Positions 34,341-64,000 of a DNA stretch of 64,000 nt are shown piece after piece; positions within the stretch are counted from its first letter, which is position 1, and each line of letters opens with the position of its first letter. The stretch spans positions 35,514 through 99,513 of the forward strand of contig MWEK01000012.1 in the NCBI GenBank assembly GCA_002070955.1, written 5' to 3'. This DNA is from Planctomycetes bacterium ADurb.Bin069 (GTDB lineage: Bacteria; Planctomycetota; UBA8108; UBA8890; UBA8898). The position numbers and the translations under genes were made by a program. The notes under the pieces are model-generated. The model worked only from the letters and a program-made list of their open reading frames with translations. It had not been told where the DNA came from and made no database searches.

Positions 34341-35537
34341 TCAGTACTGCCCGTATTCGCGCGCGGCCTCGGTCATGGCCCGCATGTTCTCGACCCGCGC
34401 GTCGTCCTGGACGATGGCGCTGGCATCCATGATATAGCCGCCGTCGCGCGCGACGCCCTCGATGACCTTCTTGACGCAGGCGCGCACCTCGTTGGGGCTG
34501 TTGTAGGCCAGCATGGCGTTGGGAATCCCGCCGCTCAGGCAGAATTTCCCCCCCAGCGCCTTGTGAGCGTTGAAGATGTCCCCGCGGTCCACATGGTAGA
34601 TGATGCTCTTTTCGGGCAGCTCGGCGAAGGCGCCCAGGTGCGCATCCCAGCTTCCCTCGGCGTAAAAGAGCACCTGGTGCCCCTTGCTCCAGATCTCCTC
34701 GATGATAGGTTTGAGCGTGGGCCAGTAGATGCGGTCGAAATGCTCGCGCGACACGAAGGGCACGCAACCGCGGTGCATCCAAATGGTGATCGGCACCTCC
34801 TTGGCGGGGTCGGCTCCGGACAGGGCCACCCACGTCAGGTGCGGCATGAGCGCCTCGCAGGCGGCAAGCACCTTCTCGGGCTGCTCCATGAGATCGTTGA
34901 TGAGGCCCAGGTAGCCGCGCAGCTTGTCCGCCAGGATGTCCATGGGCGCCTTGAGGATGCCGGCGATCGCCGAGACCGTGCCGCATTCGGTCCGGAGGCG
35001 CTGGTTCTGGCCGCCGAAGCCGAAGAAGTAGTTCAGCATGGCCATGCCGCCCTTCAGGAACGAGAGGTTGTTCCTGAGGGTGGCGGGCGCGCCGATGGGG
35101 ACCACATCGGTCGAGACCCGCGGCAGCCAGACGTTCAAGAGGAATCCCGTGGGGTCCTCGATGAGGGCGTCGTACTCGTCGGCGCGCATGAAGGCGCGGT
35201 CGGGGGGCGGCTCGCGGTACTGAAAGCCCGTGTCGGGCGAGATGTCGACGCCCGGCACGGCGTAGTACTTCAAGCCGATGGCCTGGGTAAGGCCGGTCCA
35301 GACGTAGACCATGTTGCCGACCACGGCATCCCAGTCGAACGCGGCCGCGCACTTGCAGGCCGCATCAAAGGCTTTCTCGTAGTCGTGCGTCACCTCCTGG
35401 CACGTGTAGCCGGCGTACTTGGCGGTGAACTCGGCGACGAAGGGGCGGATCGGCACCATGTCGGGCTTCTCGTTGCGCATCGCCGTCGTGTAGCGCGCCA
35501 ACCGCGCTTGGTAGAGCTTCTCCATCTCGTTCGCCAT
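34341..35537 (-). CDS. Uroporphyrinogen decarboxylase (URO-D)-like family protein (MtaA/CmuA-type putative corrinoid-dependent methyltransferase)
   Basis: Overall URO-D/MtaA-like TIM-barrel pattern (…YAGYTCQEVTHDYEKAFDA…GIPNAMLAYNSPNEVRACV…DGGYIMDASAIV). Confidence 0.75.
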   Translation of the reverse strand: MANEMEKLYQARLARYTTAMRNEKPDMVPIRPFVAEFTAKYAGYTCQEVTHDYEKAFDAACKCAAAFDWDAVVGNMVYVWTGLTQAIGLKYYAVPGVDISPDTGFQYREPPPDRAFMRADEYDALIEDPTGFLLNVWLPRVSTDVVPIGAPATLRNNLSFLKGGMAMLNYFFGFGGQNQRLRTECGTVSAIAGILKAPMDILADKLRGYLGLINDLMEQPEKVLAACEALMPHLTWVALSGADPAKEVPITIWMHRGCVPFVSREHFDRIYWPTLKPIIEEIWSKGHQVLFYAEGSWDAHLGAFAELPEKSIIYHVDRGDIFNAHKALGGKFCLSGGIPNAMLAYNSPNEVRACVKKVIEGVARDGGYIMDASAIVQDDARVENMRAMTEAAREYGQY

Positions 35538-48697: not shown

Positions 48698-49582
48698 CTA
48701 CTGGCGGTAGTCGCAGATGCCGTCGTTGTTCCGGTCGACGAAACCAGGCCCGCGTCCGCGTCCCCAACCGGGGCCGGCCTGGGGCTGGGCCGGGGGATTA
48801 CCCATCGGTCCGCGTCCGCGTCCCCAGCCGGGAGCGCCCTGGGGCTGGGCCGGGGGATTGCCCATTGGTCCGCGCCCGCGTCCCCAGCCGGGGCCAGCCT
48901 GGGGCTGGGCCGGGGGATTACCCATCGGTCCGCGCCCGCGTCCCCACCCGGGGCCAGCCTGGGGCTGGGCCGGGGGATTGCCCATCGGCCCGCGTCCGCG
49001 ACCCCAACCGGGGCCGCCCTGCGGCGGAGCGGGAGGATTACCCATCGGTCCGCGTCCGCGTCCCCAACCGGGAGCGGCCTGCGGCGGAGCCGGAGGATTG
49101 CCCGCGGGACCTTGCCTGTAACCCCAGGCGGGGCCGCCCTGGAACGGAGCGCGAGGAGGCGGTCCCCACGGCCGGTTCCAGCATGGGCAGCCCGCGCGTC
49201 CCCGGAAGCCCGCGGGGGGCGCCGTCCCCTGAAGCCGATCGCAGACTCCGTCTCGGTTGCGATCGACGAACCACCGGCCGGGTCCGAACGCGGGGCCGAC
49301 CGGCCGCCCGAAGGCGCGGCCCGGTCCCGGCTGAAAGGCCGGAGCGCGGGGCGCCAAGCCTTGGATTCGGTCGCAGACTCCGTCTCGGTTGCGATCGACA
49401 AACCACGGACCGCGTCCGAACCACCCGGGCGGCGCGGGCGCGGGCGAATCGGGCGCGACCTGCGGTTGTGCCGGGGCGGGGCTTGCCTCCTGCGGCGCCG
49501 CCTCCTGCGCCATCGCGGCGCCGCAGGCCCAGAAGAACATGGCCGCGAACGCCAACGCCGTCAACGTTTTCGAGCTCAACAT
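48698..49582 (-). CDS. Secreted Gly/Pro-rich repeat protein with three FVDRNxDGxCD (EF-hand-like) motifs and about 6 tandem 20-aa repeats
   Basis: ATG at 49582 with CAGGAGGTGACGC upstream; signal peptide. The unit PMGNPPAQPQAGPGWGRGRG is repeated about 6 times. Motifs WFVDRNRDGVCDRIQG, WFVDRNRDGVCDRLQG and FVDRNNDGICDYRQ flank the repeats. Confidence 0.65.
   Translation of the reverse strand: MLSSKTLTALAFAAMFFWACGAAMAQEAAPQEASPAPAQPQVAPDSPAPAPPGWFGRGPWFVDRNRDGVCDRIQGLAPRAPAFQPGPGRAFGRPVGPAFGPGRWFVDRNRDGVCDRLQGTAPPAGFRGRAGCPCWNRPWGPPPRAPFQGGPAWGYRQGPAGNPPAPPQAAPGWGRGRGPMGNPPAPPQGGPGWGRGRGPMGNPPAQPQAGPGWGRGRGPMGNPPAQPQAGPGWGRGRGPMGNPPAQPQGAPGWGRGRGPMGNPPAQPQAGPGWGRGRGPGFVDRNNDGICDYRQ
48745..49135. 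repeat. Tandem direct repeats, about 6.3 copies of a 60-nt unit (coding repeats of the G/P-rich protein)
   Basis: The unit cccatcggtccgcgtccgcgtccccagccgggagcgccctggggctgggccgggggattg recurs with few substitutions. Confidence 0.8.
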
Positions 49583-49847
49583 GCGTCACCTCCTGTGTGA
49601 TCCACTCTGGCTCGCCGGACTGAAGCTGCGTGACTTTTAGCAACAACCATGCCAATGCGCGTTGAAGCTCTTTCGGCCCTCGCGAGCCTGGAAAAGGCGC
49701 CGCCGCCGCGCCGTCGCGCGTGGCAACGGGTGCAAGCCTTGCACTCCACCGGAGGCGGTGCAAGATCTGCCCGCGCCGCGCGGTTGCCGCCCCGGGCGCG
49801 CGGTGGTACAAGAAATGCGGCGGACGAATCGTTCCCGAGAGACTGTA

Positions 49848-50606
49848 ATGAACGCGGAGGCGCTCCTTTCTTTTCCGATTCTGGTCCTGGCGGCGCTCTG
49901 CCTGGTCGGGTGCGCGGAGCCCGCGCCCGCGCCCGAAGCGGCACGGGCGCCGGAGGTGATCGCGATAGGGCGTTCGGTGCGCGGCGCGCCGATCGAGGCG
50001 TGGATGTTTCCGGGGCGCGAGCCCGGCTTCCTCATCATCGGCGGAGTGCACGGCGATGAACCCATCGGCGCGGAGCTTGTCGAGGCGTTCGCGGAACGTC
50101 TGCGGGCCGACCCCGCGGCGGCGGGCGGACGGCTTCTGGTTCTCGTGCCGCGGGCGAATCCCGACGGTCTTACGGCCGGAACCCGCGGGAACGCCCGAGG
50201 GATCGACCTTAACCGCAACTTCCCCGCGCCGAACTTCACGGCGGCGGCGCGCCACGGGAGCAAAGCGGCCTCGGAGCCGGAGACACGCGCCCTCGTGGAG
50301 CTCTTGGCGACGCACGCGTTCGCCTGCGTGATCGCGGTTCACGCGCCGCTTCGCTGCGTGGATTTCGATTGCGAGGCCGCCGGGCCCATCGCGGAGGCGA
50401 TGGCCGCGGCGGGCGGGCTTCCGCTCCGGCGCCTGGGAGCCTTGCCGGGTTCGCTGGGGTCGTATGCCGGCGTGCACCTGGACCTACGCTTGGTGACGTA
50501 CGAGCTGGGCCGCCGGCGCGCGCCCAGGGAAAAGACGGCGGAATACCTGGCGCCGCACGTCGAGGCCTTATGCGCGGCGGTGCGCGCGGCGGCCGCGCTG
50601 GAATGA
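49848..50606 (+). CDS. M14-family zinc carboxypeptidase-like lipoprotein (MpaA/succinylglutamate-desuccinylase-like fold)
   Basis: Lipobox LVGCAEP. Zinc-ligand region GGVHGDEPIG and DLNRNFP motif. Confidence 0.7.
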   Translation: MNAEALLSFPILVLAALCLVGCAEPAPAPEAARAPEVIAIGRSVRGAPIEAWMFPGREPGFLIIGGVHGDEPIGAELVEAFAERLRADPAAAGGRLLVLVPRANPDGLTAGTRGNARGIDLNRNFPAPNFTAAARHGSKAASEPETRALVELLATHAFACVIAVHAPLRCVDFDCEAAGPIAEAMAAAGGLPLRRLGALPGSLGSYAGVHLDLRLVTYELGRRRAPREKTAEYLAPHVEALCAAVRAAAALE

Positions 50607-50739
50607 AGATGCGGCCGCCTGAGAAAAGAGGTTGGGCGGGAAGGAACCGCCAGGGCCGGCGGCTTGGCGCCGGGCTCCGGCTGCCTTGTGGCATCGAGAA
50701 TTCGACCGGGAAGGTTCGGCTTCGGGGGTGAGGTGCGCC

Positions 50740-51612
50740 GTGGGCGGCTTGGCGTTGAAGCATGGGACGGTCGTGTTTCTCAGGGGCTTCGGCCAAATCA
50801 TGCTCCAGCCGAGCGCGCTCACCGGCGCCTTGTTTCTCGCCGGCATCTGCACGAACTCCTGGTTGCTGGCTGCGGGCGCGCTTGCCGGCGCCCTGGCCGG
50901 CGTGGTCACCGCCATGCTCTGCGGGTTCAAGCCGGCCGAGATTTCTCAGGGAATCTACGGTTTCAACGGCGCCTTGGTGGGCATCGCACTGCTCGTTTTC
51001 CACGCCCCGGGCGCCTTGTGCTGGCTGCTGATCGCGGCCGGCGGCGCGTTGTCGACTCTCATCATGCGCGTAATGCTGCGCCGGGCGGAGTTTCTGCCGC
51101 CCTTTACGGCGCCCTTCATCCTGGCGGCTTGGGCCATGCTGGCGCTTGCCCATTCGGCCGGAATTGAGGCGGCCGCCCTGGGACGCCCGCCGAGCCATCC
51201 GGGCGATGTCTTCGCCGTTTTCCGCGGCCTGGGACAAGTGATGTTTCAGGAATCCTGGATCGCGGGGGCGGTGTTTTCAATCGGCCTTCTGCTGCATTCA
51301 CGCCAGGCCGCGGCGTGGGGGGTGATAGGCTCGGCGGTCGGGCTGCTCGCCGCCCGCGGCCTCGGCTGCCCCGAGGCCCTCCTCGACGCGGGGATTTTCG
51401 GTTTCAACGGCGCGTTGGCGGGCATCGCCCTGGGCAGCGCCTTTCGCGACAACGCCATGATGCCCCTTGCGGGCGCCGTTCTGTCGGCGGCGATTACCCG
51501 CGGCTTTCAGTTGGCTGGAATTCCCGCCCTGACAGCCCCCTTCGTCCTTGCCACGTGGGCGGCGATCTTGGCGGATCGCGGCTGGGCGCGGGTGTGCCGC
51601 GCGCGCAGCTGA
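50740..51612 (+). CDS. Urea-transporter (UT) family membrane protein
   Basis: Internal duplication with hallmark LRGFGQIMLQ / FRGLGQVMFQ and GFNGALVGIAL / GFNGALAGIAL signature pairs. The proposed GTG start at 50740 (GGGGGTGAGG upstream) is uncertain; the ORF is open from 50632. Confidence 0.65.
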   Translation: MGGLALKHGTVVFLRGFGQIMLQPSALTGALFLAGICTNSWLLAAGALAGALAGVVTAMLCGFKPAEISQGIYGFNGALVGIALLVFHAPGALCWLLIAAGGALSTLIMRVMLRRAEFLPPFTAPFILAAWAMLALAHSAGIEAAALGRPPSHPGDVFAVFRGLGQVMFQESWIAGAVFSIGLLLHSRQAAAWGVIGSAVGLLAARGLGCPEALLDAGIFGFNGALAGIALGSAFRDNAMMPLAGAVLSAAITRGFQLAGIPALTAPFVLATWAAILADRGWARVCRARS

Positions 51613-51772
51613 TCGACGCCGACGAGGCGCGCGGCTCGGGGTGGTTGCGGCCTGAGGGACGTCGAATCCGCGGCAACCGACGGCCCGTGGCGGTTGCTTG
51701 CGCCGTCCGTCCGGGAGCCTACAATAAACCTTGGGTGGGCACGAGGCACCCGTGGTTGACAGGAGGCGTTCC

Positions 51773-52618
51773 GTGCACAGACTGCGGTCGGCATTGGCAA
51801 TTGCCGTATTGTGTGGGTCGGCGGCGCGGGCGGCTGATGCCGTGTACGCTGTCGCCGACACGGGGATCGCGCCGGGGGCGAAGGGCGCCCGCGTTCCCAT
51901 CGCGGCCATGTTCCCGCTACCGACTCAGGGTTTTTCGATGGCCCTGCGCCACGACTGCCCGGCATGCGCCGTTCGCGGGGTTACCACCGACGGCACGATC
52001 GCGTCCGAGGCGGATTTCGTGGAAATCCTCGTGGACGCGCAACTCCGCACGGTGGTCGTCGGGCTGCTGATGGCGGCCGCGCCGCCCGGCGGTCTCAAGG
52101 CGATCCCCGCGCTTCCCGAACCCGCCCCCGTCGTGGCGCTGGAAGTGGACGTGGATGCCGCCGCGGCGCTCGGCGAATTCGAGTTCCGGTTCGAGCCCGC
52201 GGGCTTGCCTTCGGGCGGCGCATGGGTCTACAACACGTACGCCGCCGACAACCGTTCCTTCCCCGTGACGCAGCTTCGGCCCGGCGTGGTGACGGTGGCC
52301 GAGGCGCCGCCGCCGGGGTTCCCCCGCTTCATCCGCGGCGACGCCAACCAAAACCTCGAGCTGGACCTCTCCGACGTCATCTACATGCTGAACGCGCGCT
52401 GGATGCGGCCCGGCAGACCGCCGTGCCTCGATGCGTGCGATGTCAACGATGACGGCAAGCTCGACGTCGCCGACCCGATCTATCTCCTGAGCTACCTCTT
52501 CGGCAAGGGCCCGCGGCCGCCCGTGCCCGGGCTTGTGCCCGGCATCGACTGGACGCCGGACTCCCTGGACTGCGAGCACCCCGCGGCAGGCTGGCTCACG
52601 GACTTCTGGCCGCGGTGA
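51773..52618 (+). CDS. Secreted protein with C-terminal dockerin-like double-repeat module
   Basis: GTG at 51773 with AGGAGG 6 nt upstream; signal peptide. RGDANQNLELDLSDVIYMLNARW and CDVNDDGKLDVADPIYLLSYLFGKG resemble type-I dockerin Ca-binding repeats. Confidence 0.65.
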   Translation: MHRLRSALAIAVLCGSAARAADAVYAVADTGIAPGAKGARVPIAAMFPLPTQGFSMALRHDCPACAVRGVTTDGTIASEADFVEILVDAQLRTVVVGLLMAAAPPGGLKAIPALPEPAPVVALEVDVDAAAALGEFEFRFEPAGLPSGGAWVYNTYAADNRSFPVTQLRPGVVTVAEAPPPGFPRFIRGDANQNLELDLSDVIYMLNARWMRPGRPPCLDACDVNDDGKLDVADPIYLLSYLFGKGPRPPVPGLVPGIDWTPDSLDCEHPAAGWLTDFWPR

Positions 52619-53390: not shown

Positions 53391-54728
53391 ATGGAAAGCT
53401 CGCGGATCGAGGCGGCGCTGGCGAAAGCCGCCGAGACGAAGGTCTTCAAGACGGGGGCCGGCGTCCTCGCCGAAGTGCCAGCCGTGTTCAAGGCGTGCTT
53501 CGCCGGCCCGGCCGCCGTCGTCGCGGATGAGAACACCTGGCGCGCGGCGGGGGCGCGGGTCGATGCGGCCCTGAGGGCGGCGGGCATCGCCGCGGCGCCG
53601 CCCATCGTCTTCCCCGGCAGCCCGGTGCTTGCGGCCGACTACGCCCACAGCGCGGCGATCCGCGACCGGCTGCGGCCGACGGGCGCGACGCCCGTGGCCG
53701 TCGGCGCCGGCACCATCAACGACCTGGTCAAGCGCGCCGCTTTCGAGCTGGGGCGCCGCTGCATGGTCGCGGCCACCGCGGCGTCGGTGGACGGTTATTC
53801 GTCCTTTGCCGCGGCGCTGGCGGAAGACGGCTTCAAGAAGAGCATGGATTGTCCGGCGCCGTACGCCATCGTGGCGGACACGGAAGTTCTCCGCGCCGCG
53901 CCGCCCGCCATGACCGCGGCGGGCTACGGCGACCTCGCCGGGAAGATCACGGCGGGCGCCGACTGGATCATCGCGGATGAGCTCGGCCTCGATCCGATCG
54001 ATCCGGTGGGCTGGGACATGGTGCAGAGGGATCTGCGCTTGTGGCTGTGCGGACCGGGAAAGCTGGCGGCCGGCGATGCACGGGCGTTCGAGCTTCTCTT
54101 CGAGGGCCTGACGATGAGCGGCTTCGCCATGCAGGCCCTGCGCAAGTCGCGGCCGGCGTCGGGCGCCGAGCATCTCTTCAACCACATCTGGGAGATGGAG
54201 GGCCTGGCGAAGGACGGCACGACGGCGTCGCACGGATTCTGCGTCGCCATCGGCACCCTGGCCACGGCGGCGCTGATGGAAACCGTGTTCGCCGGCGGCG
54301 CGGGCCCGCCCGATCTCGCCGAGGCGGCGGCGCGCTATCCGACGTGGGAGGCGCGCGAGGCGGCGATCCGCGCCGCTTTCGGCGGCACGCGAATCCTGGA
54401 ACGCGTCTTGGAGGAAAGCCGCGCCAAGTTCCTCGATCCCGCGGGGCTGGCCGAGAGGCTGCGGCGCATTGAGGAGCGCTGGCCCAGCATGCGCCGCCGC
54501 GTGTTGGCGCAGCTCTATTCGTACCGCGAGCTCAGGCGCATGTTCCGCGAGGCCGGCTGCCCGGTCGCGCCCGAGGAGATCGGCCTCACGCGGGAACGCG
54601 CCGCCGGCGCCTTTCGCCTGGCCGAGAAGATCCGCAACCGCTACACGATCCTCGACCTAGCCGTCGAGCTGGGCATCCTCGACGCCTGCGTCGAGCGCAT
54701 CTTTCGGTCGCCGCACTACCTGCGCTGA
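53391..54728 (+). CDS. Iron-containing alcohol dehydrogenase / glycerol-1-phosphate dehydrogenase (AraM/EgsA)-like family protein
   Basis: ATG at 53391. The GAGTINDLVKRAA nucleotide-binding loop and the overall DHQS-like superfamily pattern. The subfamily assignment is tentative. Confidence 0.6.
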   Translation: MESSRIEAALAKAAETKVFKTGAGVLAEVPAVFKACFAGPAAVVADENTWRAAGARVDAALRAAGIAAAPPIVFPGSPVLAADYAHSAAIRDRLRPTGATPVAVGAGTINDLVKRAAFELGRRCMVAATAASVDGYSSFAAALAEDGFKKSMDCPAPYAIVADTEVLRAAPPAMTAAGYGDLAGKITAGADWIIADELGLDPIDPVGWDMVQRDLRLWLCGPGKLAAGDARAFELLFEGLTMSGFAMQALRKSRPASGAEHLFNHIWEMEGLAKDGTTASHGFCVAIGTLATAALMETVFAGGAGPPDLAEAAARYPTWEAREAAIRAAFGGTRILERVLEESRAKFLDPAGLAERLRRIEERWPSMRRRVLAQLYSYRELRRMFREAGCPVAPEEIGLTRERAAGAFRLAEKIRNRYTILDLAVELGILDACVERIFRSPHYLR

Positions 54729-55217
54729 AAGAGCGGCGCGCGGAAGGCGTGTGTTGCGGGACGCCCGGGGCGTTTCCAATAGCATCGTCGGCGATGAAAA
54801 CGCCAACGAGAAGTCCTATGGGTCGGGTAGCTGGCCACGCGAGCCGAGGGGCTCTACAACGTAAGGCCGAGGCAGCGGAACCGCTGACCTGCCGGGATGG
54901 CCGTCGGCCGGATAACGGCCGACGCCACGTGGCGTGCCGACGACGCTCCTGGCTTCTATTTTGCATTCTGGTATGATGTGAAGCAAGAGGCACACTGTGT
55001 CAACGGATTCGTAACCATTGTCAGATAGTGAGTCTCGGTCATGATGCTTCCACGGCGAGAAGTAGACCGGAGATGGGTGGGAGGTGCGAACACCGCCTCA
55101 AGTGAAGTGATAGGAGTGTCGGCTGAGGGGGAGTTCGCGCCTCCCCGCGCGATGCTTCGCTGGAGGGGATAGTTTTCCTCTTCGGTCTCTCTTTGACTGG
55201 TAAAGGGAACGGAGTGG

Positions 55218-56792
55218 ATGGACATGCGCGCCTTGAAGAACACAGAAGAGTCAAAATGTACCGATGTGGCAAGGGCCTACCGTCGAGCAGGAGTGCCAAA
55301 CGAAGCAAGGCGAAGCCCCGGACTCTTACAGCACATTGTACCGACAGAAGTCAGAGATTCCGAAGTTGGAGTCGTCCTTCTAGGTGTAACCCTTCTTTTT
55401 CTGGGGAGTATTCTGTGGGCCGAGGAGTCAAGAGACGTTTCGTCGCCTTCTGGGGAAGGGGAGCCCATCGCGAGAAACGCTGAGCTGAAGAAGACTATTT
55501 ATGAGTTACTGGAAACGTTAATCGAGGCGAAGACCGCGAAGGAGAACGTGGACGCTTTTGGTTCCCTTGTCGAAATGAACGAAAAAGGGGTAACGCCCAC
55601 CCTCCTAGCGATCTTCGAAGAGGCGGAGGACGATGTGGTTCTCCAGTGCACGATTCTGCGGGTACTCGGGGCAAGAAAGGACGAATCTGCGCTTCCAGCG
55701 TTACTGGCACTTGTCAAGGTCGGCACAGAGTCTGAAGAATTCAAGGTTCATCCCGATGTGATTTTTGTCGCATGCACGACTATTGGCATGATAGGGACTG
55801 AGAAAGAACTTCCCGAACTTATTGATATGTTCATTGCCACGGACGGGGCCGAGGCGAATCTTTCGCGTGCAATAGATTCAATACTGCACAGGCTCGAGGG
55901 CGCGGGCGAAAGCCCGGTCGTCGCGGGAGTGGGCCGAGCTAAGGGGTGGGCCAAAGCTAAGCTGCTCGTGCTACTGCGCTTCTTTCCAACCGAGACAGCT
56001 CTCCAGACCGTGCGTCAGTGCCTAAGTGACCCTGACCCCGTAGTCGTCAGTTGGGCGATACACGCTCTTGGGTATTGGCAAAATCGCGAGCCTTTGCCTG
56101 ACTTACTGAGAATTGCTGAAGATAGCAGCAACCGTTCGCGTCAACGACTGGCACTGAGCTGCTATATCGATCTGCTCATAAGGCCCGCGTACGACAGGCC
56201 TGCAGCCGAAACAGTGAAGCTCTTAGAGCAGGCCTTCCAGCGGACAGCTTCGCTGTACGATAAGGAGAGTATCATCAACTCGCTGCGCACATTTGCGTGC
56301 AAAGAGGCGCTTGTCCTTGCGCAGAGGTGCTCGGACGACGGTGAGTTTGGCAGCTCGGCAAAGGAGAGTGCGAAGAAGATCAAGGAGGTTCTTCAAGACA
56401 CAAGGTGCTCCGTCACCGCATCCCCTCATCCGGAGGATGCAGAGAAGGCTATTGACGGTGATATTACGACACGGTGGAGCACGGGGGAGATCACCCGCAC
56501 TGGCTGCGGGCCCGTGCCCTTCTTCCAGATCAACTTGGGGGGAGAAAGGGCATTGAAGCGGATCATTCTTGACGGTGGAGACTCCTCAGACGAGTATCCA
56601 AGATCGTTCAAGGTGTCTGCTTCATTCGATGGCGTTTCGAGTGCACCAGTACTCTCGATCACGTCCGAAGGAAATCCGACTTTGCTCGCATTTTCGAAAC
56701 CGATTTACGCGCGCTACGTGTGGATATCGCTGACAGGAGATTCTAGGCATTTCCCTTGGTCTATCCATGAGTTACTGGTTGAGCATGACTGA
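55218..56792 (+). CDS. Membrane-anchored HEAT-repeat protein with C-terminal F5/8 type C (discoidin)-like domain, in a lower-GC segment
   Basis: TM helix VGVVLLGVTLLFLGSILWA. HEAT-like repeats (…VLQCTILRVLGARKDESALPALLALV…DPDPVVVSWAIHALGY…). The C-terminal AIDGDITTRWSTGE…FPWSIHELLVEH is discoidin-like. Confidence 0.6.
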   Translation: MDMRALKNTEESKCTDVARAYRRAGVPNEARRSPGLLQHIVPTEVRDSEVGVVLLGVTLLFLGSILWAEESRDVSSPSGEGEPIARNAELKKTIYELLETLIEAKTAKENVDAFGSLVEMNEKGVTPTLLAIFEEAEDDVVLQCTILRVLGARKDESALPALLALVKVGTESEEFKVHPDVIFVACTTIGMIGTEKELPELIDMFIATDGAEANLSRAIDSILHRLEGAGESPVVAGVGRAKGWAKAKLLVLLRFFPTETALQTVRQCLSDPDPVVVSWAIHALGYWQNREPLPDLLRIAEDSSNRSRQRLALSCYIDLLIRPAYDRPAAETVKLLEQAFQRTASLYDKESIINSLRTFACKEALVLAQRCSDDGEFGSSAKESAKKIKEVLQDTRCSVTASPHPEDAEKAIDGDITTRWSTGEITRTGCGPVPFFQINLGGERALKRIILDGGDSSDEYPRSFKVSASFDGVSSAPVLSITSEGNPTLLAFSKPIYARYVWISLTGDSRHFPWSIHELLVEHD

Positions 56793-57433
56793 TGCTTTAT
56801 GCTCCTTGCCCCCCGTGTCAGGATGGTTGTCGGGCGGGGTGAAACCGCTGGGACGCCATCGACGTTCCGGCATCGGGCCCAACCGCGCTCTCCCCGCCCG
56901 CCAGGCGGCCAGCGCATCTCGGGCCTGCTCCAGCTTGGGATCGTTGATTTCGAATCGTCGCTGCATCGGCGGTCCTCCCTGATGTCAAAAGGTCCGCCGT
57001 AAAGGTTACAGCCCGGACGCCACCAAAACACGCAGGCTTGCCGAAAACTCACTTCAGATCCGCGAGAGGGCGGCGAGGCGGGGGCGCGAACGAGCGCGTA
57101 GACCGGCCATGCGGCCGGAGCCGCGGGCGAGCCTGACCAGGTCTACGACATCCACGGCGACTCATTAAATTCCGACAATGGGTGTCTCAAAGTCATTGAC
57201 ACATACCGCGTCTTCGTGTTAAGGTGCTATCAGCTTTGCTGACCGCGTACTGCAAGAAACGCTCGGCTGCCGAGTAATCTCAGTCGCCGTTCTTAGTAGC
57301 AGTGAGTCTCGCATGGCTCTTGACTTTGTCTATTGGGCGTCCTCTCTGCGTTCCAGGGAGGACCCACGCAGGGGCCCTACCGTGCCGCCTTCCTTTATTC
57401 GTCGCTTGAAGAAGCGCACCTCAATTCGTCTCT

Positions 57434-57446
57434 GGGGGGGGGGGGG
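57434..57446. repeat. Homopolymeric G tract (13 nt) in the intergenic region
   Basis: tct-GGGGGGGGGGGGG-caat; a second G6 run lies at about 57519. It is about 165 nt upstream of the small secreted-protein gene. Confidence 0.8.
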
Positions 57447-57612
57447 CAATACAACGTCATCTTCACGCGGCTTGTCGGCCCCGTATCACGTATAGCCGGC
57501 GTAGTCCAGTAGACGTCTTCTGGGGGGTGTTTCGGGTTCGAGACCCACCTTCTTCACAAGAAACTGCTATTCGTGGCTAAGTTTAAGCTCATAGCATCCA
57601 AGAAGAAGGTGG

Positions 57613-58083
57613 ATGTATTGTATGAGGCATTTCGTTTTCGCCATCTGTGTCGCTGCGCTGCTTGGCAGCTCCGCAGGCACACTCCTCGCACAGACTAATT
57701 GCTCGGATCTGACGATGTCCCTGCCATATGGCGGCCCACACACCACATGGTGGTGTCGGCCCGCGCCGCATGAGTTTCACTGGGATACCGCGCTTATCCG
57801 TGTGAAGAACGACGCCTACGGCAACGGCTACATCTGCGTCTGGGCGGATGTGTCTAGCATGTGGAATGTGAAGAGCTGGGATATCTTCTCTTACACACCG
57901 TCTAGGGACGACTGCATCAACACCCCTGCTCGTGGGTACACCGAATGGGGGTACACGCAGTTCCGGAATGACTGGAGGGCGAGCGCAGCCGCCACCGTGT
58001 ACATAGCATTCCCTTGCACGGCTGCACAGAGTCAACAAGAGGGGAAACATCTCGACCTTTTGTGGACGGAAACAAGGCCCTAA
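57613..58083 (+). CDS. Small secreted Cys-containing protein (156 aa), unknown function, lower-GC codon usage
   Basis: ATG at 57613 with AAGGTGG upstream. Signal peptide MYCMRHFVFAICVAALLGSSAGTLLAQT. Five Cys in the mature part. Trp/Tyr-rich. Confidence 0.55.
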   Translation: MYCMRHFVFAICVAALLGSSAGTLLAQTNCSDLTMSLPYGGPHTTWWCRPAPHEFHWDTALIRVKNDAYGNGYICVWADVSSMWNVKSWDIFSYTPSRDDCINTPARGYTEWGYTQFRNDWRASAAATVYIAFPCTAAQSQQEGKHLDLLWTETRP

Positions 58084-58167
58084 TTGACGCTACCACCAGG
58101 GCCCCGCTGCCGTACGGGTTTCGGGGCCCTGGAGACTTGTGCGCAGCAACAAACGGGAAAAAACGCC

Positions 58168-60261
58168 ATGCACAGGAATGTTCTTCTCGCGGGGGTGGCG
58201 ATCGTCGCCTCGGGGCTCGCGCTCTTTCTTCTTGTCCGTGTACAACGCTGCGACCACGAGACGCCGCGTACGCCGCCCGATGAGTTCGTACGTGTAGAGG
58301 AACTTCCACGGCGACCTCCAGACGAGAACCGGCACACGGAAACGCACGGATCCGAAGCGGCACCGGCACTGATCACGGTATACGATTTCTTCACCAAGGA
58401 TCCCATTTCGAGCGAGCTGACAAGCGCCGACCAAGTGATTCGAACGTCACCTGCGGGCGACGCTGTCCTCATGTTGTTGCAGCCGCCGCACGAGGTAATC
58501 GCCAAGGCCGACGGCTATGTTCCGGGGAGGTTCATGCTTCCCGATGAAATCCGGGAGGCGCGCCTTCCTCTGGTGCCGGCGGATCCCCATCGAGTATTCG
58601 TCACGGACACAGACTCCCATGATCCGGTTGTGCATGCCCAAGTCCGGCTGTGGTTGGATGGGGCTGTGATCGCGGAGGCGAGAACGGACGAAGGCGGCAG
58701 GGCGATGGTCTCGCGTGGCGAGATCTTCTGCGATTTGCGAGCCGGGGAAACCGGCGACGTTGCGTTGAGACGACTTCGGTGGAACCGAGAAACCACGGCC
58801 ATGGGCTACATGCCGGATGAAGAACTCGAGACAGTCGTCTCGTTCGGCACAAGGGAGGGAGACGCCCTTGTCGAACTGGAGCCCGTGTGGACTCTCCAGG
58901 GGCTGGTTATCGATCCGAACGGGCGCCCTATGCCCGACGCACATGTCTTGTGGACGTGGAATCTGGTCAAAGGACTTGGTTCCGTATTTCGCGACGGAGA
59001 AGCGGTCACCGATTCGCAAGGGCATTTTACCTGGGAGGGGCCGCGGACTACCCAGCAGACGATGGTACTCGCCTGTCATCCCCAATACGGCTACACCTGG
59101 CAACAGGTACGCTATCCCTTCACGCATTCCGAAACAGGGCTCGTTCTGCGTCTGAACGACGCCTGCTCGCTGGAGGGCACCGTGACCCAGAACGACAACT
59201 TGCCCCTGGCGCAGGCAATGATCATGCTGGAGCCGCTCGATCATCCGAATCTCCGCAGGTCCGCAGTCAGGTGTATTCTGCGCTCGTCGGCATTGCGGTC
59301 CTTCAGCGAAAGCACGGGTCAAGAGGGACGGTTCCTCTTCCGGGGCCTTCCGCCCGGGCGCTATCGTGTTGTCTGCATGCACCCAGGACTCGTACTGGAC
59401 ATGGAGACTCCGATAACCGTCACACTCCCGTATGCAGGCCCTGTCACGATTAGGATGCGGCCCGGAGGAATGCGGATACGGGGCTTGGTATTGTCGACCG
59501 AGGGGGATCCCATCCCGGGCGCCATCGTCGATGTCATGAGGCGCAACGTAAACAGCGGGACGCCGGCCTTCTTCAAGCTGCCCGTTCACGTCGACGGGAG
59601 CTTCGAGTTGTCGGACCTGGAGGATGGGCCCTACCTCGTGGGCGCTTCGGCCATAGGTTTCTCCGGCGATCCCGTTGAAGTCAAACCCGGAAACACCGAT
59701 GACGTGCTGGTGGTTCTGGCCAGGACCACGGGACCGGATCCGACCCCCGGCGAAGAAGTGTCTCTCCCGATACGAATCGACTACCAGGGTGCGTTGCCCA
59801 CGCTGCAGTTCCTCGAGATAGCGGTGTGCTCGGCGTCACACACGTGTCGACTCGTGGCGGTACGCGTTGAACGAGGGTCGGCCGAGCTGCGGCTTGCACC
59901 AGGTACATGGGATATCGTGACGAGCGCGTATGGGTTCGCTCCCGAGGTTATCCGCGGGGTGACCGTCCCCGCGCCGGAACCGCTTTCTGTCACGCTACGG
60001 CCGGCACCGACATGGGCGGGCAGGATCGAGGCAGAAGGCCCCGAAACACCGGACCTGCTTGCGGTGATCGACAGGGATGGCCGCCGTTTGCGACAGGTGG
60101 CGCTTGGGCCCGATGGCGACTTTCTCATCCACGGTCTCCCGCCCGGCCTCCACACGTTCAGGGCATGGACGAACCTCGGACGCCAGTGGCGCGGAGAAGT
60201 TAATCTGGAGCGCGGTTGCGAAGATGAGGTTGTCGTGACCCTGAAGAGGGCCGATAATTGA
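58168..60261 (+). CDS. N-terminally membrane-anchored protein with multiple carboxypeptidase-regulatory-like (prealbumin-fold) domains
   Basis: ATG at 58168. TM segment LLAGVAIVASGLALFLLV. Repeated segments of the type GLVIDPNGRPMPDAHV...TDSQGHFTW and GLVLSTEGDPIPGAIVDV...VDGSFEL. Confidence 0.6.
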   Translation: MHRNVLLAGVAIVASGLALFLLVRVQRCDHETPRTPPDEFVRVEELPRRPPDENRHTETHGSEAAPALITVYDFFTKDPISSELTSADQVIRTSPAGDAVLMLLQPPHEVIAKADGYVPGRFMLPDEIREARLPLVPADPHRVFVTDTDSHDPVVHAQVRLWLDGAVIAEARTDEGGRAMVSRGEIFCDLRAGETGDVALRRLRWNRETTAMGYMPDEELETVVSFGTREGDALVELEPVWTLQGLVIDPNGRPMPDAHVLWTWNLVKGLGSVFRDGEAVTDSQGHFTWEGPRTTQQTMVLACHPQYGYTWQQVRYPFTHSETGLVLRLNDACSLEGTVTQNDNLPLAQAMIMLEPLDHPNLRRSAVRCILRSSALRSFSESTGQEGRFLFRGLPPGRYRVVCMHPGLVLDMETPITVTLPYAGPVTIRMRPGGMRIRGLVLSTEGDPIPGAIVDVMRRNVNSGTPAFFKLPVHVDGSFELSDLEDGPYLVGASAIGFSGDPVEVKPGNTDDVLVVLARTTGPDPTPGEEVSLPIRIDYQGALPTLQFLEIAVCSASHTCRLVAVRVERGSAELRLAPGTWDIVTSAYGFAPEVIRGVTVPAPEPLSVTLRPAPTWAGRIEAEGPETPDLLAVIDRDGRRLRQVALGPDGDFLIHGLPPGLHTFRAWTNLGRQWRGEVNLERGCEDEVVVTLKRADN

Positions 60262-60277
60262 CCGAGCGAGGACAAAT

Positions 60278-63200
60278 ATGCTAGTCATGCCGAAGTCGAA
60301 GCTGGCCTGGAGGATCGGTGGTGTGCTGCTGCTGTCATTGCCGCTCGCGCGCGGGGAGTCCTCGCTCTGGCCTTTCGCATTGCCGGCGGTCCCGTCGATG
60401 GAATCGTCATCGCATCTCACGGGCGTGCCGGTGGGGGATTTCGACGGCGATGGGTTTACCGATTTCCTGTTCCTGAGGGACAGCCGGTCGCGGATGCCGT
60501 TCACCTTGGTCTACGGCGGGAACATCGACAGCCCCTGCATGGACATCGAAGCCGGCGAGCTCCGGTCGACGGAATTCACGTGGGGTGGCGGCGGATTCGA
60601 TGTTTCCTACTCCCTGGTCTACGGACATGGCGACATCAACGGCGATGGCATGGAGGATCTGATTCTCGGGTACTTCTTCGACTACGTGGATCCCGGTGCC
60701 ATGAAGACGTTCGTCGTCGTCGTCTTTGGAAGCGACCTATCGGCCGAGAGCGTCGTCGACCTTGCGCGGGTCGAGGCGAATGGCACCGGCTTCGTTCTCT
60801 GCCTGGACACCTCCTCGGAGGTCCTCCCCGACATCTGGACGTGCAGCGCGACTCACGTTCCTGCCGTGGGAGACTTTAACGGCGATGGCATCGATGATTT
60901 CGCGCTATGGCGGCCGACATGCTTCGAAAAGGGAAGCGCCGTGAAGCTCTTCCTGTGTCTCGGCCAGGCACGGTGGCCGTCCCGGGTGTCGATCGACGAG
61001 TTGGTGTCCGCGGGGAAGGCCGTTCTCGTCGATTGCGTCGATGCGGCGGGATCGGAGGGGCTCGGGTCGGCGAAGTACCATCGGGTGGTTCCCGTCGGCG
61101 ACCTCGACGGCGATGGCCGCGCGGAGCTCGCGTGGGCGGTGGCGGATTCCATGTACGAGGAGGGAGGCGGCATGAGCGCCGCCTCGTGGATCATATGGGG
61201 TTGCGCCGATCTCTCCGCGCTGGTGGGGACCGCATGGATCGACCTTGTGGCCCAAGGGCGGGCGTCGTCCTTCAGGAACCTGGTTCTGACGGGTTCGGCC
61301 GGAGACATGGACGGGGACGGGTTCGGCGATGCCCTCGCGTTCACCGTTCCCGAGAAGGATCCCAATCAGGCGACGTTCGACTCCGGGCAAAGCGAAGGAA
61401 TCGTGATATACGGAGGGACGCGGCAGTCCATGTCTCCGGCCGGTGGCCTGGAGTGGCTGAATCCGGGCGTCAACTGTACGAGGCTTCCCCCGTTGCCCGC
61501 GACGCCGCGGTACTTCCCCGCGGGCGTGCGGCACATGGCGGGAGGGACGGATCTCGACGGCGACGGCATTCCCGATATTGCCCTGGCCAACAGTTCTCTC
61601 GAAATCGCCTATGGCGAGTTCCGTGCCGGTAGGGCGGGGCAGGTCCTCCTGGTCGCAGGAGTGAGGGGCAGGCCGGTGACGATCGCGGCAGACGCCGGCT
61701 CCGGCATGCTGTGGGCCGGCACGGACCACTGGGAACGCCTTGGTGCTCCGCTGTCCTTCTCATCTCGCCGGAGCAACGGCGCCGAACCCTTTCTCTATGC
61801 GGTTGCGGGGGCGAGGCTGGACATCCATGGATACGCCGACAGCCTCTCGTCGTCGATGCCGTTACGTGTCGCGTGCGTTCCCCAGGGCGCAGGCGTTCCG
61901 GCATCGCTTGCCGTCAGTCACTGGCGCGGCGTTTCGAGCTACAGAATCATGATCGTCGGTGCCGGATTCTGCGAGGGGGTCGAGGTGTTCTTCGGCGGAG
62001 TTGCGGGACACGATATGGTGATCGTAAGCCCTTGCTGCCTGCTTGTCACCGCACCGCCGGGCACGGCGGGCGAGGAAGTCGACATCACGGTGCGGCAGAG
62101 CGGCAAGGACATAGTCCTGCCAAGCCTGTACGTGTATCCGGTCACGTCTCCGACGCGTTCCCTGTCGCTCGACCGGCTCGTCTCCGCGGGCAAGGCGCAT
62201 CGGTTCGCATTCGAAGATGCAAGCGCCGACGCATACACGTGCATTCCCGTCGGAGATGTGAACGCCGACGGCGTCGAGGAGATCGCCATCGGCGTCGCGC
62301 GCGCGGATACGGACGCAATCTGGCTTCTGCCGTGCGATGCGCGGCTCGCGCCATCCACGGCGGTGTTCGCTTCCGAGGCGCCTGTCGTGGCGCGAGTCTC
62401 GGGGGCGACTCCCGGGATGCGCCTCGGTACGCCTGTCGCCGCGGCCGATCTCGACGGCGATGGGGTCTCCGATATCGTATGCACGGGGTGGACCAGTGCA
62501 GAGGGAGGTTTTGCGTGCGTCGTGTTCGGCGGATCGCATCTGCAAGGCGATGTCGCGATCGACTCCGGCATGGGAGTCTTGCAGCTCGGGCCAACCGCCG
62601 GCGTGTCCTACCCGGTGGTGCAGCTCGCAGGCGACATCGACGGCGATGGGACGGCTGATCTCGTCCTCGGACTCGTCACACGAGGCGTCAACTCTGTCTT
62701 CGTGCTGTACGGCGGCGCTCAATTAAGGTCGCTGGGGCGCATTGGTCTCGATGCTGTGCCGGCGGCGTCCGCGGGCGCGAGGATCCTTCCAGGAACCGCG
62801 CTCGTCATGTTCGGCGATCATCTCGGAGACGGGAATATCGGCGCCGGGCTGATGTTCGCCGACCAGTTCGGCGTCCTTGCGTGGGGGGAGAAGCTGACGG
62901 GCGAGTTGGAGGCGTCGGAGCTCTGCGTCGAGCGAAGGGTGTCTTCGCCATTCTACATCGATCATTGCGGGGGGCTCACGGGTATTGCCCCCGGTCCTGT
63001 CGACTTCGACGGAGATGGACGGCCCGATCTCGTGGCCTGCAAGCCGTCCTTCTTCACGGAAATGGTGGGCGCTTCCCTTGTCGGCGTGGTGGGTTTTTTC
63101 TCCGGAGAGTTTCTCGACTTCCCATCCGGGCGCTTCGATTTGGGCACATACCTAGGGTGGCTGGTGCAGGGCATGGGGCAGATGACGGGTACGCCTCGAT

Positions 63201-63862
63201 ACTATGTCGGGGACGCGGTCACATCGGTCGGCGACCTGAACGGAGACAGTCGTACCGACTTCGTGGTCCTGTGCGCCGACCGATTGGATGCGGAGAAAGG
63301 GGCTCGCGGCGTCGCGCTGCTGCTCCTCGGCGACGCGAGTTGGTCCGGTGGCGTCTCGTGCGATGTGGAAAGCGTGGGCGGCGTCGGGGTCTTCCTCGAT
63401 ACCGCCTCGCGACTGAGCGCGCGGCCGCTGTATCAGACCGCCTCGCGCGACGTGAACGACGACGGGCTCGACGATTTCGTGGTCGCGTTCAGCGCGGGTC
63501 CCTACAGCAAGTGGAACGCCGTGCCTCTCTCCGAGGCGTATCTTGTCCTGGGCTCCGTGACCCCGTACTGGGATCTCGTCCGCGAGATGTTCCAGCGCGC
63601 CGATGTGAACGACGATGGCAAGGTCGACATCGCCGACGCCATCTTCATCCTGGGCTATCTGTTCGCTTGGGGCGCCGTTCCGGGGTGCGTCGATGCGGCC
63701 GATGCCAATGACGATGGCAAGGTCGACATCGCCGACGTCATCGCCATCCTAGGGCATCTTTTCGCGAACAGCGGTCCTCTGCCGGCGCCATTCGGCGAGT
63801 GCGGAACCGATCCCACGGACGATACGCTGGGATGCTTTGAGTACTCCCACTGCGAACCGTGA
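60278..63862 (+). CDS. Large secreted FG-GAP/VCBS-repeat (beta-propeller) protein with C-terminal dockerin-like double repeat
   Basis: Signal peptide. At least 12 repeats of the xDxNGDGxxDx type (GDFDGDGFTDF, GDINGDGMEDL, GDLDGDGRAELA, DLDGDGIPDIA, GDIDGDGTADLV ...). The C-terminus ADVNDDGKVDIADAIFILGYLF / ADANDDGKVDIADVIAILGHLF is dockerin-like. Confidence 0.75.
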   Translation: MLVMPKSKLAWRIGGVLLLSLPLARGESSLWPFALPAVPSMESSSHLTGVPVGDFDGDGFTDFLFLRDSRSRMPFTLVYGGNIDSPCMDIEAGELRSTEFTWGGGGFDVSYSLVYGHGDINGDGMEDLILGYFFDYVDPGAMKTFVVVVFGSDLSAESVVDLARVEANGTGFVLCLDTSSEVLPDIWTCSATHVPAVGDFNGDGIDDFALWRPTCFEKGSAVKLFLCLGQARWPSRVSIDELVSAGKAVLVDCVDAAGSEGLGSAKYHRVVPVGDLDGDGRAELAWAVADSMYEEGGGMSAASWIIWGCADLSALVGTAWIDLVAQGRASSFRNLVLTGSAGDMDGDGFGDALAFTVPEKDPNQATFDSGQSEGIVIYGGTRQSMSPAGGLEWLNPGVNCTRLPPLPATPRYFPAGVRHMAGGTDLDGDGIPDIALANSSLEIAYGEFRAGRAGQVLLVAGVRGRPVTIAADAGSGMLWAGTDHWERLGAPLSFSSRRSNGAEPFLYAVAGARLDIHGYADSLSSSMPLRVACVPQGAGVPASLAVSHWRGVSSYRIMIVGAGFCEGVEVFFGGVAGHDMVIVSPCCLLVTAPPGTAGEEVDITVRQSGKDIVLPSLYVYPVTSPTRSLSLDRLVSAGKAHRFAFEDASADAYTCIPVGDVNADGVEEIAIGVARADTDAIWLLPCDARLAPSTAVFASEAPVVARVSGATPGMRLGTPVAAADLDGDGVSDIVCTGWTSAEGGFACVVFGGSHLQGDVAIDSGMGVLQLGPTAGVSYPVVQLAGDIDGDGTADLVLGLVTRGVNSVFVLYGGAQLRSLGRIGLDAVPAASAGARILPGTALVMFGDHLGDGNIGAGLMFADQFGVLAWGEKLTGELEASELCVERRVSSPFYIDHCGGLTGIAPGPVDFDGDGRPDLVACKPSFFTEMVGASLVGVVGFFSGEFLDFPSGRFDLGTYLGWLVQGMGQMTGTPRYYVGDAVTSVGDLNGDSRTDFVVLCADRLDAEKGARGVALLLLGDASWSGGVSCDVESVGGVGVFLDTASRLSARPLYQTASRDVNDDGLDDFVVAFSAGPYSKWNAVPLSEAYLVLGSVTPYWDLVREMFQRADVNDDGKVDIADAIFILGYLFAWGAVPGCVDAADANDDGKVDIADVIAILGHLFANSGPLPAPFGECGTDPTDDTLGCFEYSHCEP

Positions 63863-64000
63863 TGTCGGAGGGCGGCTTCAAGGAGAGTCCCGTTCTCGGC
63901 GCCCCCATGATCCACGTGGTCCCGCGACGTTGCGCGAGCCCGGCGTGGAGGTGTCCCTCCCGAAAATCCCATCCGCTGCCGAGGTGCGGGTCGGCAGAAC

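Follow-up and report, generated by a model that had tools for sequence, protein, structure and literature searches.

The 64,000-nucleotide stretch of contig MWEK01000012.1 analysed here (Planctomycetes bacterium ADurb.Bin069, positions 35,514 to 99,513 of the forward strand; hereafter the window) becomes visibly poorer in GC near 54.7 kb, which raises the question of where this DNA came from, how far it extends and what it encodes. A first-pass annotation had marked positions 54730-58100 as an atypical segment, either horizontally acquired or strain-variable. The segment is indeed atypical, but an end at 58,100 cuts mid-way through a longer, two-module block that runs from 54,749 to the window end at 64,000 and on to ~64,075, about 75 nt past the window on the extended contig (L001/L050). 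This lineage-specific inserted block of ~9.3 kb was delimited by blastn, tblastx, junction sequences and composition, and consists of a HEAT/discoidin gene (module 1) followed by a three-gene cassette (module 2). The low-GC segment is probably the left third of an islet of this length gained by horizontal transfer, with a cargo that is likely to serve cell-surface binding or adhesion.

The composition of the block set it apart from the rest of the window. In 1-kb bins the GC content was 0.64-0.75 throughout positions 1-55,000, fell to 0.544, 0.568 and 0.577 in the three bins at 55-58 kb, and remained under the host level (0.60-0.67) from 58 kb to the window end, with recovery to at least 0.70 observed ~20-100 nt beyond it. 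The reported drop at ~54.7 kb is therefore real but begins later, at about 54,900-55,000 (between ~54,850 and 55,150 at 300-nt resolution) and not at 54,730, the DNA from 54,729 to 54,960 being still GC-rich (0.66). Near 54.95 kb the values go from about 0.69 down to 0.52-0.60. As a codon background for the host we used 34 long open reading frames (ORFs) with the host coding signature, whose GC content at third codon positions (GC3) was 0.896 +/- 0.033 with a minimum of 0.816. Against this background GC3 was 0.589 for ORF 55218..56792 (z -9.4; synonymous-codon log-likelihood z -7.5), 0.682 for 57613..58083 (z -6.5), 0.697 for 58084..60261 (z -6.1) and 0.783 for 60278..63862 (z -3.4), and the synonymous-codon likelihoods of the four block ORFs under the host model ranged from z -7.5 to -2.8. 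The unusual codon usage annotated for the first two of these ORFs was thus borne out. Tetranucleotide distance to the host profile, calculated in 2-kb windows, peaked at z = 11.3 at 55-57 kb and was still z = 3-5 at 61-64 kb, which refutes a uniform composition. We also correlated tetranucleotide z-scores (TETRA r), with the host cut into 6.7-kb chunks that were each compared with the rest of the host. Host chunks gave values of 0.70-0.85 and related species 0.84-0.87, while the cassette part of the block gave 0.46 and the HEAT module -0.07. The compositional departure is real and far beyond chance, and the block deviates from its host in composition and codon usage as genomic islands do.

The borders of the block were set by comparison with relatives that lack it. 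On its left lies a native, glycerol-1-phosphate-dehydrogenase-like Fe-ADH_2 gene (53391..54728, + strand; GC3 0.906), identified by Pfam (PF13685, 4.4e-28) and NCBIfam. On the right, overlapping public loci extend the window through the last cassette gene, which encodes a 1194-aa protein, to a FUN14 gene and then a glycogen phosphorylase gene (glgP); FUN14 and glgP lie beyond the block and are at host level (GC at least 0.70, GC3 0.89-0.92). A search with the Fe-ADH_2 protein against one genome per species returned two close Planctomycetota metagenome-assembled genomes (MAGs), PPR_0510 (L004, 87% amino acid identity) and UBA4800 (L035, 90%), with ~84% nucleotide identity, and the remaining matches were from other phyla with at most 49% identity. 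Nucleotide and translated alignments to both relatives cover the rubrerythrin and Fe-ADH_2 genes, stop at window positions 54,729-54,743, and restart in the FUN14 gene, at 64,114-64,118 of the extended contig. In each relative the rubrerythrin/Fe-ADH_2/FUN14 core is contiguous, with ~85 nt from the Fe-ADH_2 stop codon to the FUN14 ATG, and the entire block is missing. Since the two genes lie this close in both relatives, the DNA from 54,749 to ~64,075 is a 9.3-kb lineage-specific block; the two positions come from the spacer alignment (blastn and tblastx of L004 and L035 against the window plus L001), which puts the insertion between them. The non-coding spacer 5' of the HEAT/discoidin gene (54729..55223) has a GC content of 0.66 over its first ~230 nt and 0.55 over the remainder, and alignment to the relatives' spacer is limited to its first ~20 nt. 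Conserved synteny of the block, named beforehand as the result that would speak against acquisition, was not found.

Additional evidence was obtained from the cassette (module 2, about 57,150-63,862), whose three genes lie on the + strand. The first (57622..58083) encodes a predicted secreted protein of 153 aa with a predicted beta-sandwich. The second (58168..60261) encodes 697 aa, in which a transmembrane helix at the N-terminus is followed by a disordered linker and ~7 tandem beta-sandwich (CarboxypepD_reg) domains. The third (60278..63862) encodes the 1194-aa protein, which is predicted to be secreted; its FG-GAP calcium-binding repeats number at least 11, and its C-terminus carries a dockerin-like module. 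The 153-aa product had been described as a small Cys-rich secreted protein, in agreement with its signal-peptide-like N-terminus and 6 Cys. A word-based search found no homolog of it. An exhaustive HMMER scan of 1.84 billion representative proteins placed it in a family of 3 clusters with two relatives, P0039 and P0040, at 40% and 38% identity, respectively (34-35% in the comparison of cassette loci). Five invariant Cys and an FPCT..Q..GKH..WT motif characterize the family. The genes for P0039 and P0040 each stand first in the same three-gene order, on the same strand, on two other metagenome contigs (L057, 10001-16266; L059, 874-7266) with unrelated genomic contexts. In these homologous cassettes the small protein measures 149 or 162 aa, the CarboxypepD_reg protein 701 or 744 aa and the FG-GAP protein 1199 or 1193 aa, and the intergenic spacers are alike in all three cassettes (77-84 nt and 3-33 nt). 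Over its full length the 697-aa protein is 36% identical to the L057 homolog and 26% to that of L059; for the 1194-aa protein the values are 37% and 26%. The L057 and L059 contigs have 56-57% GC, and the GC3 of their cassette genes equals that of the neighbours (0.57-0.62). The cassette is compositionally native there, and thus fits lower-GC genomes and is foreign to this one. The two contigs are not donors, because the identity is low and the TETRA r of our cassette to them is 0.30-0.35.

The dockerin-like module of the 1194-aa protein has a counterpart in a protein of the host. It matched PF00404 (Dockerin_1) at residues 1108-1154 (4.3e-05; 24.1 bits, cutoff 22.9) and is made of two 68-nt repeats that are 85% identical. 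A native protein of 281 aa encoded at 51,773-52,618 (GC3 0.855) shares this C-terminus (40% over 82 aa, E 4e-15), and the module was also observed in extra genes adjoining the other cassettes (L057 7021-7821 and 16278-19346; L059 7302-8792). Identity of the ~85-aa module to the copy in the 1194-aa protein is 40-55%. Its recurrence suggests, from sequence, a shared sorting or anchoring tag. The proteins that carry this C-terminal module of two dockerin-like calcium-binding repeats (63590-63862 in the 1194-aa gene) are secreted and otherwise unrelated, and those of the window have a short Cys-containing tail after the repeats.

Several observations weigh against a gain of the block by this lineage or against the function proposed for it. 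The spacers of L004 and L035 are nearly identical, so the two relatives count as one lineage, and on gene order alone one deletion in their ancestor is equally parsimonious. Outside the three-gene core the gene order in the relatives differs on both sides (5' of rubrerythrin they carry AP_endonuc_2, an unknown gene and a DUF4382 gene); synteny beyond the core is not conserved, and the neighbourhood is therefore a generally rearranged one. No donor was identified, the best cassette homologs being 26-37% identical at a TETRA r of 0.30-0.35. The block also contains three non-coding patches (54,729-54,960; 56,800-57,150; 63,863-64,075) that are rich in GC (0.66-0.69) and for which neither a counterpart in the 85-nt spacer of the relatives nor any protein or RNA family was found. 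Finally, the block yielded no cohesin-like partner, and none of its proteins had a cohesin match in Pfam.

As the two relatives amount in effect to a single lineage, the choice between a gain here and a loss in the relatives rests on composition. The block might be ancestral and deleted in the relatives' common ancestor, its low GC reflecting relaxed selection or fast evolution of surface genes and not a foreign origin. Such a history would fit the single independent empty site documented by the almost identical spacers, the poor synteny on both sides of the core, and the stepwise climb of GC3 along the block (0.59, 0.68, 0.70, 0.78). However, these values lie 12-31 points under a tight host distribution (standard deviation 0.033), the TETRA r values of 0.46 and -0.07 compare with 0.70-0.85 for the host, and genomes of 57% GC have cassette homologs that are native to them. 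Nor does being a surface protein lower GC on its own, for the dockerin-bearing one native to the host (51,773-52,618) has a GC3 of 0.855. We consider an ancestral block quite improbable on these grounds.

A decayed classical mobile element, with its integrase or transposase and its att or inverted-repeat ends lost or below detection, would account for the insertion precisely within an intergenic spacer, and could have left as remnants a doubtful 64-aa ORF and the three non-coding patches rich in GC. The absence of an integrase, tRNA or clear direct repeats had already been noted at first pass, and library scans, a tRNA scan and shuffle controls confirmed it. None of the four block genes had an integrase, recombinase or other mobility match in Pfam, PHROG, PADLOC or NCBIfam. 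The spacer ORFs were also without a Pfam match, the 64-aa ORF had no PHROG or PADLOC match either, and PADLOC reported a single weak HEAT-repeat match and nothing else in the block. No tRNA or tmRNA was observed in the 64-kb window, and no Rfam family reached its gathering score there; a mir-2058 match at 55,077-55,149 was rejected as spurious (27 bits against a gathering score of 90). Apart from this match, Pfam and Rfam found nothing in 54,729-55,217 or 56,793-57,612, and no pseudogene remnants were found in the spacers by Pfam at E <= 1. The block showed no similarity to phage DNA, and searching plasmids with the 697-aa protein turned up only domain-level matches at 23%. End-to-end direct and inverted repeats of the block were no better than in shuffled sequence (best direct match 23, shuffled mean 20.8-21.8), and att-like or inverted repeats did not exceed chance between 54,729-55,217 and 63,863-64,400 or against the relatives' spacers. 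An apparent copy of the FUN14 5' end at the left junction failed the shuffle control. The search for att-like direct repeats at both borders therefore agreed with the earlier negative finding and defined no classical island borders. A decayed element is, in our assessment, no more probable than an ancestral block. The mode of integration, like the direction of the event and the function of the cargo, is something we infer: as no mobility machinery is recognisable, integration was probably illegitimate or by recombination of homologous flanks.

The block was present in every assembly of the species that we examined. Exact matches to the 522-aa HEAT/discoidin protein and the Fe-ADH_2 protein were found on many public contigs, including a 1.2-Mb ENA contig, JGI metagenomes and NCBI MAGs labelled Planctomycetota bacterium, and the species recurs in many digester and wastewater assemblies. 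Public loci were 100% identical to the window over the overlap. The longest contigs with either protein all have the same gene neighbourhood, block included, and seven loci from five samples were identical across the 11.8-21.6 kb that they have in common with the extended window. The block and its two junctions are also found in slightly divergent assemblies (5 single-nucleotide polymorphisms in 9.3 kb; 1 in 3.4 kb), with L060 crossing the right junction and L062 the left. No presence/absence polymorphism was observed among the examined contigs with the flanking Fe-ADH_2 gene, in assemblies that were 99.9-100% identical and whose sampled diversity is very low. Since the sampled population is nearly clonal, these data are weak evidence on variability and strong evidence against a chimeric assembly. 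Of the two origins offered at first pass, acquisition is supported by the empty site and the composition, but strain variability is not, all of these nearly identical assemblies having the block. That DNA of a lower-GC organism was wrongly joined into the contig during assembly or binning has next to no chance of being correct, for although the data are metagenomic, one MAG contig breaks off within the block (at 57,039) and a run of 13 G residues (see below) adjoins the starts of several short contigs, identical junctions were observed in at least five independent assemblies from different projects and assemblers, among them the 1.2-Mb contig, covered ~50x, and contigs that cross each of the two junctions.

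Horizontal acquisition accordingly remains our preferred reading. The islet would have been gained in the lineage of a ~70% GC Planctomycetota bacterium from digesters and wastewater, inserted into the ~85-nt spacer between the Fe-ADH_2 and FUN14 genes, and it would by now be fixed in the sampled population. The two modules differ in composition and have a GC-rich patch between them (56,800-57,150), which makes it probable that two acquisitions contributed to the block as a mosaic. Small blocks of this kind, acquired and carrying lineage-specific genes for surface proteins, are common, and ours resembles other genomic islets in its atypical GC, codon and tetranucleotide signature, its precise intergenic insertion relative to relatives, and its surface or secreted cargo with few homologs. 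It differs in lacking an integrase and other mobility genes as well as a tRNA target and direct repeats, in its size of only 9.3 kb, in being a mosaic of two modules of differing composition, and in that the sampled population shows no polymorphism for its presence or absence. Neither a classical integrative island nor visibly variable among strains, it is an ordinary small acquired island with modestly novel cargo. Its value is that of a clean example of an islet with base-level borders in an uncultured Planctomycetota species.

Module 1 is the HEAT/discoidin gene (55224..56792, + strand), which with a GC3 of 0.59 is the most foreign-looking gene of the block. Its product was correctly annotated as a HEAT/discoidin membrane protein: the 522 aa form a single-pass membrane protein with a ~45-residue N-terminal tail, one hydrophobic segment predicted as a helix at ~45-68, HEAT repeats (HEAT_2, 2.2e-15, 57.2 bits, cutoff 27.7) and a C-terminal discoidin domain (F5_F8_type_C, 8.6e-14, 52.2 bits, cutoff 28.2). 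A search of 5.8 billion proteins gave only eight homologs, of which the best other than the protein itself (36% and 30% identity) are 775-778 aa long and align only to the C-terminal ~330-430 residues, and no trace of the extra ~250-360 N-terminal residues of the longer homologs was found 5' of the window gene. We rejected this gene as a member of the cassette because its homologs have unrelated neighbours. A 64-aa ORF on the - strand (56772..56966), called by some annotators, is a doubtful gene with no Pfam match and sits in the GC-rich (0.66) patch at ~56,800-57,150 between the two low-GC modules.

All four block proteins have N-terminal hydrophobic segments, and all four products are predicted to be extracytoplasmic. 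The 153-aa protein was modelled from a three-sequence alignment as a signal peptide and a nine-strand beta-sandwich (predicted local distance difference test score, pLDDT, 76; predicted template modelling score, pTM, 0.69), and comparison with the PDB gave only generic beta-sandwich neighbours with template modelling scores (TM-scores) of at most 0.43. Although the gene looks like an orphan it is real, and it marks a cassette known from three loci in billions of proteins. The 697-aa protein matched Pfam PF13620 (4.7e-38), and its AlphaFold2 model (pLDDT 74.5) consists of the transmembrane helix, the disordered linker and ~7 tandem beta-sandwiches. Foldseek matched this model to the stalks of Gram-positive adhesins and pilins and to macroglobulin MG domains; no cohesin structure was among the top 50 matches, which were adhesin, pilin, protease and macroglobulin-type proteins. 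The string of beta-sandwiches resembles the stalked adhesins, such as the SdrD B repeats, the pilus adhesins SpaC and PitA, and B. anthracis TIE, with Foldseek E values down to 4e-11. The resemblance is one of domain class only, with TM-scores of at most 0.2 over the whole query and 8-14% identity, and unlike those proteins the 697-aa protein is anchored by an N-terminal transmembrane helix. The 1194-aa protein has a signal peptide and many FG-GAP calcium-binding repeats (Pfam FG-GAP, 2.2e-31), as have integrin-like FG-GAP propeller proteins.

In its two-repeat ending, similar to dockerin type I, the 1194-aa protein is comparable to the cohesin-dockerin display of cellulosomes, as it is in sharing the module with a native protein and with genes neighbouring the other cassette loci. 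It differs from such systems in the Cys-containing tail after the dockerin and in that no cohesin or carbohydrate-active enzyme was detected in the block. The most economical reading of these domain classes is a surface-exposed assembly that uses the dockerin-dependent display already present in the host. The likely function of the islet would then be a cell-surface binding or adhesion assembly, in which the membrane-anchored stalk protein may present or partner the propeller protein and the dockerin-like tail of the propeller may plug into a display system that the host already uses. The cassette offers a defined, testable unit for planctomycete surface biology.

The cassette may be a tricistronic unit with a promoter-like site of its own and a leader of ~400 nt. 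An 829-nt non-coding stretch precedes the small gene, and in it we observed a sigma-70-like promoter match, TTGACA-N18-TAAGGT (57196..57225, + strand), which is the sole match to TTGACW-N17/18-KAWNNT in the 64-kb window. L057 and L059 also have a single match each to a relaxed sigma-70 pattern, in the corresponding leader and on the same strand; the promoter statistics are optimistic because the pattern was written post hoc from the three loci. A homopolymer of 13 G (57434..57446, + strand) lies 175 nt before the start of the small gene and is unique in 66.8 kb, all other G/C runs there being of 7 or fewer. In the other loci the homopolymer was G9 (L057, 9844-9852), G10 (L058, 245-254) and C8 (L059, 704-711). 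It is the longest G/C run of each locus and lies at similar distances from the ATG (148 nt in L057, 162 nt in L059 and 175 nt in the window), in three leaders that are otherwise unalignable. The chance of such a run per leader is <5e-5 for the G13 of the window, 0.0145 for L057 and 0.032 for L059. L057 and L058, from the same organism in different samples, are identical over 1,631 nt except for G9 in the former and G10 in the latter. In the query species G13 was found in all five assemblies that cover the tract, although consensus assemblies cannot show minority lengths and poly-G is error-prone. Several low-coverage contigs start just 3' of G13, which fits sequencing difficulty as well as variation.

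Homopolymeric contingency loci include the poly-C tracts in the fim promoters of Bordetella pertussis and the poly-G or poly-C tracts in surface genes of Neisseria and Haemophilus. Our loci resemble these in having a long G/C homopolymer 5' of surface-protein genes, at a position kept in three unalignable leaders, and in the single-base length difference (G9 or G10) between two otherwise identical assemblies. They differ in the place of the tract, which is ~100-200 nt 3' of the best promoter match, 148-175 nt short of the start codon and outside both the -35/-10 spacer and the coding frame, and in that the query species has G13 in five of the five covering assemblies. Judged by its sequence, the homopolymer may be a phase-variation or slippage element. 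A bolder proposal, in which the G/C tract of the leader controls this rare cassette by slipped-strand phase variation or transcriptional slippage and the cassette is a new, horizontally mobile surface-assembly module, seems to us rather unlikely. If it were true, free-living, non-pathogenic Planctomycetota would have a contingency-type switch for surface proteins, of which a small literature search found no description, and the cassette would form a module of anchor stalk, propeller and small subunit. That the homopolymer keeps its position across the three leaders is a hint that surface proteins in an environmental phylum may be under stochastic or slippage control. Folding of the leader RNA around the tract was no better than in shuffled sequences (z -0.24, -0.02 and +0.29). 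In L058 (G10) the end of a 77-aa upstream ORF with an ATG start overlaps the start of the gene as ATGA; the ORF is cut to 27 aa in L057 (G9). We rejected a frame-switch model based on upstream ORFs, as no logic was consistent across loci and the window and L059 do not follow L058 and L057.

Some contig ends were also observed in the 56,793-57,621 spacer. L003 ends at window position 57039, L060 starts at 57498 and L063 at 57454, the latter two starts being 8-52 nt 3' of the G13 tract. The 1-kb JGI contig L064 diverges 5' of the small gene (1-101), and its divergent part includes a reverse-complement copy of 57,588-57,629; we regard this as an inverted-duplication assembly artefact and not a rearrangement.

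Further features were noted outside the block. Besides the two MAGs, relatives of the Fe-ADH_2 protein (53391-54728) with 45-49% identity were mostly from Actinomycetota, with single ones in Armatimonadota and Lentisphaeraceae, and Alistipes and other Bacteroidales followed at 37-42%, a patchy distribution. The three genes 5' of rubrerythrin (49662-52618) have a slightly low GC3 of 0.82-0.855 and encode a peptidase M14-like protein, a urea transporter and the 281-aa protein with the dockerin-like C-terminus; they may represent a second, older variable segment. A 60-nt tandem repeat (48750-49157; 5.9 copies, 88% matches), for which a 120-nt period is also possible, falls within a 294-aa ORF on the minus strand that appears in the assemblies' gene calls with no Pfam match recorded.

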